A stretch of DNA of 64,000 nucleotides from an uncultured bacterium (GTDB taxonomy: Bacteria > Bacillota_I > Bacilli_A > RF39 > UBA660). The translations under genes and the position numbers were made by a program. The stretch spans positions 9,645 to 73,644 of the forward strand of contig CAMERI010000004.1 in the NCBI GenBank assembly GCA_945935525.1, in the 5' to 3' direction. The notes under the pieces were generated by a model. It was not told the DNA's origin. It made no database searches and saw only the letters and a program-made list of their open reading frames with translations. Below, one piece after another: positions 5,581-40,441 of the stretch. The first letter of the stretch is position 1. The number at the start of each line of letters is the position of its first letter.

Positions 5581-6094
5581 TATTATTTTAAAAGATTATA
5601 TAAATAATAGTTCTGATATTATAAATTTTATAAATGATAAATTACTAGATGACTTAATAAGCAATATAGATAATAGTATTATAATAGTTACTTCTCACCT
5701 AATTCATAAAGAAAATACTATTACTCACAAAGAACAATTTATATTCAATTTAGATAATTATATTTCATTCATAAAAGAACACATACATATCAGTGAACTA
5801 AAAATAAGATATATCTTAAGTGAAACATTAAATAACAGATACAATAAGATTCTTTTATCAAATAAATACTACTATAGTAATGTAGAACTATATCAAAAAG
5901 AGTTCATTAATATGTTTATGTATAAATACTTAAAAAATACAGAATATCTAAGTAAATATATAAAACTGGATAAATTAGACTTTAATAGTCTTTGTAATCT
6001 TATTAACACAAATAAAAAAGCACATATTTACTTTGAAGATATAACAAGTAATAATGTGCATTATTATATAAATTTAATTAGAAGTATTAGTTAA
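5567..6094 (+). CDS. Hypothetical protein
   Basis: 175-aa ORF with GGAGG RBS, overlapping XRE3; no recognised motif. Confidence 0.6.
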   Translation: MMNYNIILKDYINNSSDIINFINDKLLDDLISNIDNSIIIVTSHLIHKENTITHKEQFIFNLDNYISFIKEHIHISELKIRYILSETLNNRYNKILLSNKYYYSNVELYQKEFINMFMYKYLKNTEYLSKYIKLDKLDFNSLCNLINTNKKAHIYFEDITSNNVHYYINLIRSIS

Positions 6095-7159
6095 TATATC
6101 ATACATATTAGTATAAGTGAAAGTTACTCTATTAGTACCTTTCCTTTTTTCTTTTACTAAGTATCCTTGTTCTACCAATTTATTAAGAACCTTATTAACA
6201 GAATTAATATGTAATTTACATTCTTCTACTATGTCATTAGTTGTAAACACTATTCTTTTAGCTATAACAGGATATACTTTATATATAGTACTTCCACCTA
6301 TAGTTATTTTAAAATCTTCTAAATCTCTAGTATATATTTTATTAAGTTTCTTTATTCTTTTAATATTTATACCACATTGATTAATAATACATTCTAGAAT
6401 AAACTTTATAAACTTAGGAAACTTTTCATCATTTTCATCACTTAATAAAGTAAAATATGTATTTTTCAAATTATCAATTGCCTCTGATATAAATAATATT
6501 GGAGGTTCTTTTTTGTAAAATGATAATTGTATAGGTATAGTAAGTCTTCCTATTTTACCATTACCAGTTAAATATGGATGTAACTTTTCATATTGATAAT
6601 GTGTTACCGCTATAGATATAAAATCAGGTTCTGTAGGTTCATTCATATATTCACATAAATTTTTCATATAACCATTTAGTTCATTATATAATGGCGGTAC
6701 AAATGAAACACTAGATCCAGCAAGACCAGGCTTTAATATATAAGTTTGAGTCTTTCTTAAATGTCCACTACCTTTAGTAGAATTATCTTTCTTACAATTA
6801 CTTAAAAGAACTTTATTTACTCTATTAAATGTATCAATTGAAAATCCATTCTTACTAGCATAAGAAAGTCCAGATAATAAAGCCATCTTAATATTATTAA
6901 ATTGTATTACTGTATTATTTTTATTCTTATACGGCATTAAAAACATATCATCTTTAGTAATCTTAGCATTATCAATTTTAAAAGAATAATATGTATCAAT
7001 TATAAATGCTGACTCTAAAAAAGATTTATAATCAAAAGTCATACTCTTAAGAAATCCTTTATACTCTCCATATGCTTCTTTCGCATCACATAGAAGTTTC
7101 ATAAGAGAACTATCAAGTTCATAATTAAAAGGTAATTTTTTAGCTTTATATGGTTCCAT
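6074..7159 (-). CDS. Fic-family protein (N-terminal Fic_N-like region, C-terminal HTH), degenerate active site
   Basis: HYQYEKLHPYLTGNGKIGR resembles HPFxDGNGRxxR; GxLRxxQ flap; C-terminal wHTH-like segment. Confidence 0.85.
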   Translation of the reverse strand: MEPYKAKKLPFNYELDSSLMKLLCDAKEAYGEYKGFLKSMTFDYKSFLESAFIIDTYYSFKIDNAKITKDDMFLMPYKNKNNTVIQFNNIKMALLSGLSYASKNGFSIDTFNRVNKVLLSNCKKDNSTKGSGHLRKTQTYILKPGLAGSSVSFVPPLYNELNGYMKNLCEYMNEPTEPDFISIAVTHYQYEKLHPYLTGNGKIGRLTIPIQLSFYKKEPPILFISEAIDNLKNTYFTLLSDENDEKFPKFIKFILECIINQCGINIKRIKKLNKIYTRDLEDFKITIGGSTIYKVYPVIAKRIVFTTNDIVEECKLHINSVNKVLNKLVEQGYLVKEKRKGTNRVTFTYTNMYDILTNTSN

Positions 7160-7234
7160 ACTTTACACTCCTTAATTATATATTATCATAAATATAATAA
7201 AAAATATACATATTTAATTAAAAATATGTATATT

Positions 7235-7621
7235 TTAATATGGATTAGGATAACTAGTAAGACCAGTACCTTCTCCTTTAGTCCATATAATTTTATTTCC
7301 TAATACTTTAAGACCATATATTATTTTATATAGTGTTTTATCTCCATTTTTATAATAAAATGTTAATGTAGTATTACCATTTTTATTAGGTTCAAATACC
7401 CATTTATCATCTTCATCACTAGTAAGTTTAACATTATCATTAGTAGATTCATAACTCCAACTATAGCCATCTTTAGAATCCATATCATACTCTATAGTCA
7501 TCTTATCATTATATACCGCTAAATACTTAGAAGCTGGACCCCAAAATACCAAATAAATTGATACTAAAGCTGTTACTCCAAACATAATATAAAATCTTAA
7601 ATACTTCTTTATATGTTTCAT
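7235..7621 (-). CDS. Membrane-anchored protein, possibly chagasin/I42 protease-inhibitor-like
   Basis: N-terminal TM, GYSW motif, W-x-F...G-x-T-x-L-x-F-x-Y; candidate own promoter TTGCTT-17-TATTAT upstream. Confidence 0.5.
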   Translation of the reverse strand: MKHIKKYLRFYIMFGVTALVSIYLVFWGPASKYLAVYNDKMTIEYDMDSKDGYSWSYESTNDNVKLTSDEDDKWVFEPNKNGNTTLTFYYKNGDKTLYKIIYGLKVLGNKIIWTKGEGTGLTSYPNPY

Positions 7622-7662
7622 ATCTTCACCATAATAATAATATCACTTTTAACATATTTAAG

Positions 7663-7702
7663 CAAACAAAAAACAACCCGTTCTGATAAAACAAGATTGT
7701 TT
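7663..7702 (-). terminator. Intrinsic terminator ending the putative ncRNA
   Basis: Minus strand AACAATCTTGTT-loop-AACGGGTTGTT followed by a T-run; G-U pairs work only on the minus strand. Confidence 0.7.
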
Positions 7703-8134
7703 CGAGTTTCCGAAAATAAATTATGAATCATTTATATTAATAATTAAATTAATATAAATACTTCTAAATATTATCAGTATTTAGCATAATTTCTTATCAT
7801 TTTGAGTTTTGCTTTCTCAACGTTATAACATTTGTCCTTAGTAGATAAGACATCTATTTCTTAAATTAATAAGATATTTTTATTATTTATATTATTTTGA
7901 TATAAAATATTATTAGTAAGATAGATATATAATTAAGTTAGTAAATTAATACTAATTAAGAACATATAATTGAAAAATAATATTAGTATATCCAATATAA
8001 ATAAGTAAAAATAATATAGATTTTTTCACTAATATAATTAAATTATTTATATTATTATATAAGTTTATAAAAGTAATTAAACTTAAATAAATTATTATAT
8101 AATAGATATAATATTTAATTATCTATTGGACAAC
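7663..8134 (-). ncRNA. Putative novel structured AU-rich ncRNA (about 470 nt)
   Basis: Promoter TTGACA(8166-8161)-17-TAATAT, terminator hairpin plus U-tract at about 7702-7663, no ORF of 60 aa or more, many inverted repeats. Confidence 0.55.
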
Positions 8135-8217
8135 TATATATTATCAAATATTTCATACCCTGTCAATATATTTTTAAATTTTTTTTCAAAAAAATAAAAT
8201 AATTGCATTTTCAGCAA

Positions 8218-9738
8218 TTATTTTTCTTCTCCTCTTAACAGATAACTCTTATCACTATAAGAAGTATGTAATAATTTAAAACTCTCTTCACTAAGTGGTT
8301 TTCTTAAATAATTCTTGTATAATATTTTTAATTCTTTATTATCATGAGCAAATCTAACAGCTCTTTTAGAATCTATATTATAAAGTCCTTTAGCTCTTTG
8401 CTCCCTAATCTTATCTAATTGTGTTATTTGGCATAATGGTTGTCCACCACCACCAATACATCCTCCTTTGCAATTCATAACTTCTATGAAATGATATTTC
8501 TTATATCTATCATCTTTTAATAGTTCTTCTAAATTTTCAAGTTGTTGAACAACAGCAACCTTAAGTTTATAATTATGTATCTCTATAGTTGCTTCTTTTA
8601 TTCCATTAAATCCTCTTAAATCACTAAATACTAATTGATCTTTCTTTAAATTAGTTTTAGTCATAATTCTATAAAGCGTACGAATAACTGATTCAGTTAC
8701 TCCTCCAGAATTACCAAATATTACTCCACCACCACTACCTTCTCCTAATAATTTATCATATTCACTATCATTTAAATTATTAAGTTTAATATCTTCTTCT
8801 TTAAGTAAAATAGAAAATTCACTAGCTGTCATTACATAATCAATATTAATTGTATATTCACGTGCTTCCATCTTCTTAGAAGTACAAGGTGTAATAGCTA
8901 CAGTAACTATCTTTGATGGATCTATATTCTTTTCTTTAGAAAAATATTCTTTAATAATTGCACACTGCATACCTATAGGACTCTTACAAGTAGATAAATT
9001 ATCTAATAGTTCTGGATGATACACTTCAGCATATTTAACCCAAGCAGGGCAACAACTTGTAAACTGAGGCATAGGGCCTTTATTAGTAAGTCTAGCCGCA
9101 AACTCAGCTACTTCTTCCATAATAGTTAAATCTGCTCCAAATGCAGTATCAAATACATAATCAAAACCTATCTTCTTAAGAGCAGTAACAAGTTTACCCT
9201 CTGTATTATCTCCAGGTTCCATTCCAAAGTTTTCACCCATAGAAACTCTAACAGCAGGAGCAATCATAGCTACAACTACTTTTTCATTAGTATTTATTAT
9301 TTCTTTAACTTCCTTATAACAATATCTAGGTACTATAGCACCAGTAGGACAATTCAAAATACATTGACCACATCCCAAACATATAGGATTCTTACATACA
9401 TTTAAATCATAAGAAAGGTTAACTACCTTCTCACAAGTCTTCTTACATTGCCCACAATTAATACATTTTTCAGGTATTCTAACTATTGCTGGATTATATT
9501 GACTTATTCTTACTTTTTTATCTTCTACTGTATCATTAACAATTTTACTTGTTTTAATATCTAATGCTTCTTCAACTACTGAATCTATTACTGAATCTAA
9601 ATCATCTTGATCAAATATATCATTAGTTACTAACTTAAATTCATTTTTTACGCTTTCACACATGGGACAAACATAATCATCAGATAACTTATCAGTTTCG
9701 ACTATATAACCACATTTAGCACATATATATTTTGCCAT
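8218..9738 (-). CDS. hydA: [FeFe] hydrogenase with N-terminal rubredoxin-like domain and 2x[4Fe-4S] domain
   Basis: CAKCGY..CPMC; CINCGQCKKTC and CLGCGQCILNCP; H-cluster motifs FTSCCPAW, TPCTSKKME, EVMNCKGGCIGGGGQP. Confidence 0.93.
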   Translation of the reverse strand: MAKYICAKCGYIVETDKLSDDYVCPMCESVKNEFKLVTNDIFDQDDLDSVIDSVVEEALDIKTSKIVNDTVEDKKVRISQYNPAIVRIPEKCINCGQCKKTCEKVVNLSYDLNVCKNPICLGCGQCILNCPTGAIVPRYCYKEVKEIINTNEKVVVAMIAPAVRVSMGENFGMEPGDNTEGKLVTALKKIGFDYVFDTAFGADLTIMEEVAEFAARLTNKGPMPQFTSCCPAWVKYAEVYHPELLDNLSTCKSPIGMQCAIIKEYFSKEKNIDPSKIVTVAITPCTSKKMEAREYTINIDYVMTASEFSILLKEEDIKLNNLNDSEYDKLLGEGSGGGVIFGNSGGVTESVIRTLYRIMTKTNLKKDQLVFSDLRGFNGIKEATIEIHNYKLKVAVVQQLENLEELLKDDRYKKYHFIEVMNCKGGCIGGGGQPLCQITQLDKIREQRAKGLYNIDSKRAVRFAHDNKELKILYKNYLRKPLSEESFKLLHTSYSDKSYLLRGEEK

Positions 9739-40306: not shown

Positions 40307-40352
40307 TAATAAAGTACTTGATTTTATTTTAAAAATAATATATAATCTACTT

Positions 40353-40423
40353 GTGCAACAGAAAAAATGCAAATCAGGTCAGAATCGGAAGATAGCAGCC
40401 TTAAGTGATTATTCTGTGTGCAC
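40353..40423 (+). ncRNA. ffs: SRP RNA, minimal form (about 71 nt)
   Basis: TCAGGTC..GGAAG..AGCAGC core, closing stem GTGCA/TGCAC, T7 tail, promoter TTGATT(40318)-17-TATAAT(40341); next to tadA-dnaX. Confidence 0.88.
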
Positions 40424-40441
40424 TTTTTTTGTGAGGTAAAA

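Follow-up and report, generated by a model that had tools for sequence, protein, structure and literature searches.

The PGK RNA motif has been listed in Rfam since 2017 as a 92-nucleotide (nt) candidate of type Cis-reg (RF03040), and its source is Weinberg et al. (2017, NAR 45:10811, PMC5737381). The name PGK does not occur in the main text of that paper, and the motif description must be in its supplements. The text of a 2020 review of orphan riboswitches contains no mention of PGK, and no paper using the names PGK motif, PGK RNA motif or RF03040 was found, hence no study of PGK RNA. The source of the name is apparent from members in other lineages, which precede phosphoglycerate kinase (pgk) genes. 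Here, we describe a PGK RNA in a stretch of 64,000 nt (hereafter the window) of contig CAMERI010000004.1 from an uncultured bacterium of the RF39 lineage. As in the described family, the match is full length and includes the helices P1, P2, and P3. In contrast to the members that gave the motif its name, the downstream genes encode an I42-like and a Fic-family protein and not phosphoglycerate kinase, the only PF00162 match (pgk) of the genome being located on another contig (C9). Moreover, the complete unit comprises about 470 nt here and, as estimated from the sequences, about 310-480 nt elsewhere, compared to 92 model positions, and it adds a pseudoknot at the 5' end, a junction, and a terminator with a conserved loop.

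Identity of the locus

The whole window was scanned with the covariance models of Rfam, and positions 7550-8300 were scanned again permissively at E-values of up to 10. The first scan revealed three matches, i.e., OLE RNA (1690-2171), signal recognition particle (SRP) RNA (40349-40429), and PGK RNA (7764-7856). The latter spans model positions 1-92 of 92 and reaches 83.4 bits at a gathering score of 50.8, with P1, P2 (nested in P1), and P3 all aligned without non-canonical pairs. Beyond PGK, the permissive scan of 7550-8300 returned three chance-level rows only. An earlier note on this stretch, made from the letters alone, had described the locus as an unrecognised and possibly new non-coding RNA. 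The Rfam scan it had asked for finds a known family, the very outcome it had named as refuting novelty, and this claim fails because RF03040 matches 7764-7856. Two of the helices listed in the note, TTGAG/CTCAA (P2) and a 7-bp hairpin (P3), are part of the match.

The Rfam model covers 93 of the ~470 nt of the unit, which runs on the minus strand from 8134 to 7665. The 5' domain together with the helix that joins it to the core, the junction, a 12-bp hairpin, and the terminator all fall beyond the 92 model positions, in an architecture that is conserved family-wide. It is close to certain that the locus is a member of the PGK RNA family (RF03040), that the promoter-to-terminator unit is the full-length form, and that the 92-nt motif is only its conserved core. 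The idea of a large RNA gene, as put forward in the earlier note, is thus a reasonable account of the RNA of which the PGK motif forms a part. Its anatomy is largely right, and the core was already named by a routine Rfam scan. What may be new here is the full-length architecture and the resulting doubt about the label "cis-regulatory".

Folding and architecture of the full-length unit

The 475-nt minus-strand RNA folds at -96.3 kcal/mol, compared to -65.7 +/- 5.5 kcal/mol for shuffled sequences (z-score -5.56), and none of 100 shuffles folds as well. Taken separately, the 5' half (7858-8134) reaches -51.4 kcal/mol (shuffles -33.5 +/- 3.3, z-score -5.36) and the 3' half (7660-7857) -38.7 kcal/mol (shuffles -27.5 +/- 3.6, z-score -3.15). 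For the opposite strand of the same 475-nt stretch, -79.3 kcal/mol was obtained versus -62.1 +/- 5.2 kcal/mol (z-score -3.34), the minus strand being more stable by 17 kcal/mol. The excess structure is real and stronger on the strand that had been named beforehand, as this folding check, also proposed in the earlier note, demonstrates.

The strongest single result concerns helix H1, which joins the first transcribed bases to the core segment between P1 and P2 and closes about 300 nt. The earlier note had proposed such a closing helix, and a duplex test across lineages now confirms it. In 58 of 75 non-redundant copies, the 18 nt past the nearest promoter-like site bind the copy's own core at -6.5 kcal/mol or better; for the remaining 17, the script chose a nearer spurious promoter site or none. 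The median was -8.6 kcal/mol for the own partner versus -4.6 kcal/mol for foreign partners, and 11.9% of the foreign pairs reach the own median. Across lineages, H1 occurs in 31 distinct complementary versions, with strand pairs including UUGUCC/GGACAA, AGACC/GGUCU, GCUUAG/CUAAGC, ACCUAGA/UCUAGGU, UUGCUC/GAGCAA, UUGUCUAG/CUAGACAA, and UCCUAAAG/CUUUAGGA. Within the genus, GUCC/GGAC is changed to GACC/GGUC in 5 of 36 sequences, and P1 changes from CUUAUC/GAUAAG to CUAAUC/GAUUAG in five sequences. As H1 crosses P1 and both covary, comparative sequence analysis shows that the 5' end of the RNA and the core are joined in a pseudoknot.

A MAFFT alignment of 32 same-genus loci revealed conservation from ~7876 to 7660, plus further blocks upstream that include the promoter. 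In total, 40 full-length units were delimited and 36 of them aligned (A1), while L024, L024_2, L039, and L044 were omitted for their atypical lengths. Applied to A1, RNAalifold retained H1, the mid hairpin, the small core hairpin, the stem of the three-way junction, P3, P4, and the terminator, with compensatory changes at 28 of 57 pairs. We complemented this model by a hand-written one of 12 helices, which adds P1 and P2 from Rfam, H2, P0, and a loop-loop contact, and tested it on the same 36 sequences. It pairs 96.3% of the alignment cells, compared to 37-45% for slid partners and 90.3 +/- 0.3% for shuffles. Compensatory changes were found at 33 of its 79 pairs (7-15 for slid partners, 15.1 +/- 2.4 for shuffles), and the covariation score was 0.207 (0.042-0.055 and 0.100 +/- 0.004, respectively). 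None of 500 shuffles attains any of the five measures of the model, a count that is not a probability, as the aligned sequences are related; the slid-partner control is fairer. Relatives of the unit thus exist, and most helices of the earlier note survive covariation, among them 8128-8133/7832-7837, the junction stem 7785-7792/7718-7725, the 12-bp hairpin at 7730-7759, and the 7-bp hairpin at 7764-7784. Folding and covariation together also bear out the picture of a structured RNA that is large, multi-junction, and strand-specific and that has a conserved promoter and a terminator of its own.

With respect to the individual helices (Table 1), the 16-bp internal hairpin is paired in 97.2% of the cells and has compensatory changes at 9 of 16 pairs, followed by H2 (91% paired, 4 of 6 pairs compensatory) and P0 (91.6% paired), whose closing pair switches from U-A to A-U or G-C. 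The closing stem of the three-way junction is paired in 96.4% of the cells, with compensatory changes at 5 of 8 pairs, and P4 has such changes at 8 of 11 pairs. Across lineages, the junction strands bind their own partner better than a foreign one (median -4.95 versus -3.20 kcal/mol). For the UUGAG/CUCAA helix (7802-7820), which had also been noted before, the pairing itself stands (96% of the cells), whereas none of its five pairs shows a compensatory change within the genus. A candidate pairing from the UUAGUGAAAAAAUCUAU block, UUAGUG/UACUAA (7843-7838), is paired in 87% of the cells and nearly invariant, and hence unproven. Less clear-cut is the 5' hairpin domain. The pairings AATAGATA/TATCTATT and AAGTTTA/TAAACTT are both present in the window sequence, and the minimum-energy 5' hairpins of the window are paired in 51-87% of the relatives' cells, on an unreliable part of the alignment. 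A 19-bp AU helix (7994-8013/7875-7893) is paired in 65-69% of the cells, compared to ~45% for slid partners, and its alignment is poor as well. In the second tandem copy of locus L061, only ~50 nt separate the transcript start from the core.

The unit ends at an intrinsic terminator, as had been claimed; its stem is paired in 100% of the cells, and 6 of 9 pairs show compensatory changes. A simple terminator scan, which demands three G-C pairs, detected none at the unit. The sequence TTATCAG was found in the terminator loop of 88 of 90 non-redundant copies versus 2 of 83 upstream control regions, and the two copies lacking it are false pattern hits. This loop (UUAUCAG) is exactly complementary to the P3 loop (CUGAUAA), and neither of the two 7-nt loops varies in any of the 36 aligned sequences. 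We infer that the P3 loop docks on the terminator loop as a kissing contact, on grounds of co-conservation and not of covariation, since both loops are invariant. This pair of loops recurs throughout the copies detected, but the pattern used genome-wide fixed the P3 loop by design. When the P3 loop was left free, three further genuine members were detected besides the window's own copy and one false hit. Two of the three keep both loops; the third (L176) has the same P3 loop and no clear terminator hairpin.

Two side observations relate to these loops. A divergent PGK-like element at G000:C2:30686-30771 (locus L002, 1501-1586, minus strand), also present in L172 and L173, scores 42 bits, which is below the cut-off, and has its own P2-like and P3-like hairpins and terminator. 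The register of complementarity between its P3-like loop (CGACUAA) and its terminator loop (UCUUGUCAG) is ambiguous. It precedes a small open reading frame (ORF; MATKGQKQ...) that is, by eye, a putative insertion sequence (IS)-type transposase gene. Three species of the genus share the 586-nt stretch of this element at ~99% identity, suggesting a recent horizontal spread. Furthermore, the P3 loop CUGAUAA equals the anticodon loop of the genome's tRNA-Ile(GAU), as predicted by aragorn. It follows that this anticodon loop is complementary to the terminator loop UUAUCAG as well, within which the Ile codon AUC is found. We treat this only as a lead; the identity may be due to chance, the probability of which we roughly put at a few percent for a loop in U-turn format.

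A further element of the core is a palindromic mini-hairpin, which is self-complementary over its entire length, including the four "loop" bases. Palindromes of at least 10 nt (G-U allowed) were found in 41 of 46 distinct core segments, compared to 18% in shuffles, and palindromes of at least 8 nt (G-U allowed) in 45 of 46, compared to 43% in shuffles. The central four bases of these 45 palindromes are AAUU (23), UAUA (11), UAUG (5), UGUA (3), or AUAU (3); in L054, the palindrome measures just 6 nt, with GAUC as its centre. The centre types, which are few and related, differ by changes on both sides. As the four loop bases cannot pair inside one hairpin, the element may pair between two RNA molecules. 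A bolder version, which we put forward tentatively and regard as rather improbable, is that the PGK motif would be no leader element but the core of a stand-alone ornate RNA of 310-480 nt with both ends tied, which pairs with another copy of itself via the core hairpin, a perfect palindrome of 10-14 nt in nearly all members, and forms a particle assembling by RNA-RNA contacts in small-genome gut Bacilli.

We also considered that an AT-rich spacer folds by chance and contains no functional RNA beyond the 92-nt motif. The region is indeed extremely AT-rich, the 5' hairpins are poorly conserved, and a promoter scan yields as many sites as in shuffled sequences (15 versus 15.4 +/- 4.6). However, the 5' half alone reaches the z-score given above. 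Covariation extends to elements that lie beyond the Rfam match or span its border, namely H1, H2, P0, P4, the 16-bp hairpin, the stem of the junction, and the terminator, and the spacing between the conserved promoter and the H1 strand is constant. Chance folding is already contradicted by the cross-lineage test of H1 and the 12-helix model, and we attach hardly any probability to it.

Table 1. Features of the PGK RNA unit and its surroundings (window coordinates)
Feature	Position	Strand	Details
Promoter	8138..8166	-	TTGACA (8166-8161), 17 nt, TAATAT (8143-8138); TG at 8146-8145; A/T tract upstream
Predicted RNA 5' end and H1 5' strand	8128..8134	-	UUGUCC; 4-7 nt past -10; partner GGACAA 7837-7832
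5' hairpin domain	8034..8122	-	lineage-variable; from minimum-energy fold; holds AATAGATA/TATCTATT and AAGTTTA/TAAACTT
Conserved block	8016..8032	-	UUAGUGAAAAAAUCUAU; AUCUAU 8021-8016 pairs with AUAGAU 7857-7852 (H2)
16-bp internal hairpin	7925..7967	-	tip UUAGUA-UUAAUU-UACUAA; also found by RNAalifold
Hairpin P0	7859..7874	-	UCUUA-UUAAUU-UAAGA; directly 5' of Rfam match
PGK RNA match (RF03040)	7764..7856	-	E 1.4e-11
P1	7849-7844/7798-7793	-	100% of cells paired within genus
H1 3' strand	7837-7832	-	GGACAA; inside P1-enclosed loop
Palindromic mini-hairpin	7831-7820	-	between H1 and P2
P2	7820-7816/7806-7802	-	UUGAG/CUCAA; within Rfam match
Three-way junction	7718..7792	-	closing stem 7792-7785/7725-7718 encloses P3 and P4 (7759-7730)
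P3	7784-7764	-	100% of cells paired; loop CUGAUAA 7777-7771
Linker and intrinsic terminator	7665..7709	-	linker AAACUCGAA 7709-7701; stem 7703-7695/7678-7670; loop UUAUCAG 7689-7683; U run
Candidate next-gene promoter	7637..7665	-	TTGCTT, 17 nt, TATTAT (7642-7637); TG 7645-7644; read from sequence
I42-like gene (first downstream)	7235..7621	-	128 aa; hydrophobic N-terminus; weak match to chagasin-type peptidase inhibitor I42
Fic/DOC-family gene (second downstream)	6074..7159	-	361 aa; C-terminal winged-helix region
[FeFe]-hydrogenase gene	8218-9738	-	hydrogenase domains identified by Pfam
Hydrogenase terminator hairpin	8188..8222	-	AU-rich; arms 8222-8214/8206-8198, then U run; read from sequence

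Transcription, distribution, and downstream genes

The promoter of the unit is the top minus-strand site of the promoter scan (TTGACA-17-TAATAT, 10 of 12 consensus matches, TG present), although the scan alone is uninformative given its number of sites. That the RNA has a promoter of its own, as had been proposed, is borne out by conservation: of 56 related copies, 38 show TTGAYA-N16-18-TAnnnT followed by G[A/T]CC within 3-9 nt, and among the 18 without this pattern, 4 are truncated by a contig end. A near-consensus promoter was also found in other lineages, 200-315 nt upstream of P3. The predicted unit starts near 8131-8134 and ends near 7665-7668. As every lineage's promoter is positioned so that the transcript starts with the H1 strand, a stand-alone unit is supported. 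We propose, at what we judge to be an even chance, that PGK RNA is transcribed on its own, terminates at the end of its own unit, and functions as an independent structured RNA. In the architecture shown by covariation, the first transcribed bases, UUGUCC, pair with GGACAA inside the P1-enclosed loop. This pseudoknot contains the lineage-variable 5' domain, H2, the 16-bp hairpin, and P0; past the core, the P3/P4 junction, the conserved AAACUCGAA linker, and the terminator follow. Together with the kissing loops of P3 and the terminator, the 5' pseudoknot would tie both RNA ends into the fold. The RNA would most likely be a folded particle that binds protein or RNA, and read-through into the next gene would be a side effect, possibly exploited by some genomes of the genus.

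Sequence data from other sources fit a transcribed unit but prove neither its strand nor its ends. Fifteen sequencing runs contain part of 7000-8400, and four of these were mapped (X5, X9, X10, and X11), as contigs only. X5 contributed one 440-nt contig (depth 59.7) on 7700-8133, whose end meets the predicted RNA 5' end. A contig of 254 nt on 7710-7963 came from X9, which is an RNA library, and two 151-nt contigs inside the unit (7794-7944 and 7961-8111) came from X10. In X11, also an RNA library, a piece of the downstream gene (7342-7572) and the P3 region of a relative were found and none of this species' RNA. X5 and X10 were marked "probably DNA" by the tool, and true RNA libraries can also contain DNA; the support is weak. 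No contig of at least 90% identity lies on the hydrogenase gene, and none joins the RNA to the downstream gene (X5, X9, and X10), which we do not use as evidence, contig gaps proving nothing.

To describe the distribution, genomes were searched with the Rfam model, which detected PGK RNA in 45 of 49 genomes of the same genus, in 1 of 11 genomes of other genera of the family, and in 0 of 40 genomes from other families. With a strict pattern, 5 of 401 genomes across the class were hit, one of them falsely. Because of this patchy distribution, PGK RNA is not a housekeeping RNA and its role is accessory. The known housekeeping RNAs were rejected as candidates as well: RNase P RNA, tmRNA, and SRP RNA are all located elsewhere in the genome, and 6S RNA gave no match, though its model succeeds in no more than 5 of 14 control genomes; the present RNA is also not rod-shaped like 6S RNA. 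A scan of species-representative genomes for the P3-hairpin pattern yielded at least 120 loci; among those listed, ~80 are PGK-like, and the others are chance hits from unrelated phyla. All 19 other-lineage loci that were re-scanned pass the RF03040 cut-off (70-98 bits), and the promoter-to-terminator architecture is alike in all other lineages inspected. A phage origin was rejected, as none of 19 pattern matches in viral contigs is PGK-like.

Within the genus, the usual order is hydrogenase, ~350 nt, motif, ~130 nt, a gene of ~125 aa, and Fic. Some genomes have a second RNA copy directly before Fic, and others a copy before the 125-aa gene at another locus. In other lineages, the RNA is followed by pgk-tpiA (L061, L063, L116, and L140, an association that is not part of the model), lepA, a gene for an LPG-synthase-like membrane protein and then gyrB, cytidine deaminase, or genes for unknown proteins of 118-122 aa. 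In another genus of the family (L041), it precedes genes for a CotD-like protein of 110 aa, an M23 peptidase, and a holin, a set that resembles a lysis cassette. At locus L109 (4866-5321), the first ORF past the RNA is a 151-aa fragment with domains of the IS605 OrfB/TnpB type. The downstream genes have no metabolic theme in common. As a separate observation, a conserved inverted repeat, ATATACATATTT...AAATATGTATAT, lies between the RNA terminator and the Fic start at L077, L101, L102, L084, and L036, where Fic is preceded by an RNA copy of its own. This repeat could represent an operator for the winged-helix domain of the protein or else a second hairpin.

Several of these findings weigh against a stand-alone RNA gene. 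Besides the patchy distribution, the RNA accompanies the I42-like gene and the Fic gene to different loci, with duplicate copies in front of each, which looks like a gene-specific coupling. Of 75 non-redundant copies, which represent only about ten independent gene contexts, 74 share the strand of the ORF next downstream. In many genomes of the genus, the 12-22 nt between the U run of the terminator and the ribosome-binding site (RBS) are too few to accommodate a promoter, and the gene must then be read through from the RNA promoter. In addition, Rfam assigns the type Cis-reg, we know of no trans partner, the kissing contact does not covary as both loops never vary, and the contigs carry no strand, transcript ends, or abundance. 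The Cis-reg type, the same-strand ORFs, the short distance to the RBS, which makes the gene depend on read-through, and the separate copies that move with the I42-like and Fic genes all favour a cis-acting transcription attenuator. Here, a 470-nt leader would bind a signal (small molecule, protein, or RNA) in its pseudoknotted core and thereby set the terminator (7703-7668), governing read-through into the I42-like and Fic genes at this locus and into pgk and other genes elsewhere. We regard such an attenuator, the main rival of the stand-alone reading, as possible but somewhat doubtful. A weak alternative pairing of the core (UGAU...UUGAG) with CUCGA and the 5' arm of the terminator (-4.5 to -9.2 kcal/mol) could serve as antiterminator and is the best partner in 19 of 36 sequences. 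However, it recurs without clean covariation, shifts its register between species, and fails where the flank is AAACUAGAA, and the search of the 36 sequences revealed no consistent element.

Other findings argue against attenuation and for the stand-alone RNA. First, a shared theme is lacking among the downstream genes. Second, promoters between the terminator and the next gene would bypass attenuation. In the pgk lineage, the RNA terminator is separated from pgk by a second hairpin and a consensus promoter, and a post-terminator TTGACA-17-TATAAT was found with 12 of 12 matches in L075, L143, and L166 and with 11 of 12 in L116 and L169. The lepA loci L110 and L149 carry TGATATAAT after the terminator, and the loci with the 118-aa gene carry TTGAYT-17-TATTAT. 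For the next gene in the window, a candidate promoter was read from the sequence, while the script scored the neighbouring alignment TTTGCT-18-TATTAT with 8 of 12; close relatives with gaps of 35-46 nt have, by eye, a TGnTAYTAT element. Third, tandem copies each have their own promoter and terminator (L061, L024, and L044). Finally, 88 of 90 copies show sequence conservation of the terminator loop and its 5' flank. Such loop conservation is unlike the expression platform of a riboswitch and suggests that the hairpin belongs to the fold instead of serving as a switchable platform.

The co-travelling genes also raise the question of a dedicated pair, in which the RNA would restrain a Fic-type toxin or pair with the I42-like protein, loosely like a type III toxin-antitoxin system. 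In type III loci, a terminator sets the ratio of RNA to protein, and Fic/DOC domains include known toxins. The recurring layout of promoter, structured RNA, terminator, and gene would fit this, as would the movement of the RNA with the Fic and I42-like genes, the Fic/DOC match at this locus (PF02661, E 9.5e-11), and phage-like neighbours in relatives, i.e., an ORF6N protein (L015) and the M23 peptidase and holin of L041. However, other members adjoin the housekeeping genes pgk-tpiA, lepA, and gyrB, ToxI-type tandem repeats are lacking (only five low-complexity AT rows with scores of 33-49 were obtained), and the pattern matches in viral contigs are not PGK-like, all of which makes this pairing unlikely.

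Regarding the surroundings of the unit, it sits between the [FeFe]-hydrogenase gene and two small accessory genes, all on the minus strand. The terminator hairpin of the hydrogenase gene overlaps the stop codon of this gene, and a chance-level mir-242 match covering it is its sole tool trace. The N-terminus of the hydrogenase has a weak rubredoxin-like match (PF21349, 22.2 bits, below cut-off), which precedes the ferredoxin and H-cluster domains. The I42-like protein matches PF09394 with 28.6 bits (cut-off 27.2), and its gene keeps the same position behind the RNA in most relatives. The ~470 nt of the unit are free of ORFs, in agreement with the earlier description, except for two 37-aa ORFs touching the 3' edge. 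One of them (7618-7731, minus strand) begins at the conserved AUGAUUCAUAAUU within the RNA and reads through the terminator; in the relatives L034, L035, and L017, it is fused in frame with the downstream gene, giving 154-172 aa. It is probably non-coding, because conservation is at the nucleotide level and includes third codon positions. The window also carries a full-length OLE (ornate large extremophilic) RNA on the plus strand (209.5 bits, cut-off 50), which places two large structured RNAs, OLE and PGK, within 6 kb.

Comparison with known structured RNAs

Our data suggest that the catalogued 92-nt motif is the centre of a much larger RNA, to whose fold the first bases and the terminator hairpin belong, and that this RNA adjoins unrelated genes, often with promoters of their own. 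If this holds true, the family should be re-modelled at full length and treated as an RNA gene rather than screened for ligands, and one more large structured RNA would be added for poorly studied, uncultured, small-genome gut Bacilli.

Typical riboswitch aptamers are much smaller than the 310-480 nt of PGK RNA. Terminator-based leaders and riboswitches nevertheless share its layout of a conserved pseudoknotted RNA followed by an intrinsic terminator upstream of a same-strand gene. The HMP-PP riboswitch is described as having a terminator-embedded aptamer (PMC6478431), and conserved nucleotides inside the terminator hairpin are common to both RNAs. PGK RNA differs from riboswitches in lacking a metabolic theme downstream, in the promoters past the terminator in several lineages, and in having no supported antiterminator. 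T-box leaders are likewise long, leader-like RNAs ending in a terminator, and the PGK terminator loop, which includes AUC, complements the anticodon loop of tRNA-Ile(GAU). However, no T-box model matched within 7550-8300 at E-values of up to 10, the codon-like element occupies the terminator loop rather than a 5' Stem I, and the downstream genes are not related to aminoacyl-tRNAs or amino acids.

Among large bacterial non-coding RNAs, the raiA motif RNA was likewise named after a neighbouring gene. With OLE, ROOL, and GOLLD, PGK RNA shares its size, its many helices, its high conservation, and its occurrence in anaerobic Firmicutes-type genomes. It is a separate family, and none of those models matched within 7550-8300 at E-values of up to 10. 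The title of a preprint on OLE, ROOL, and GOLLD (bioRxiv 10.1101/2024.12.08.627333) speaks of "RNA-only complexes", and the self-complementary element of PGK RNA could, judging from the palindrome only, permit RNA-RNA assembly as well. If so, a dimerising PGK RNA would resemble the assembly recently reported for these three RNAs.

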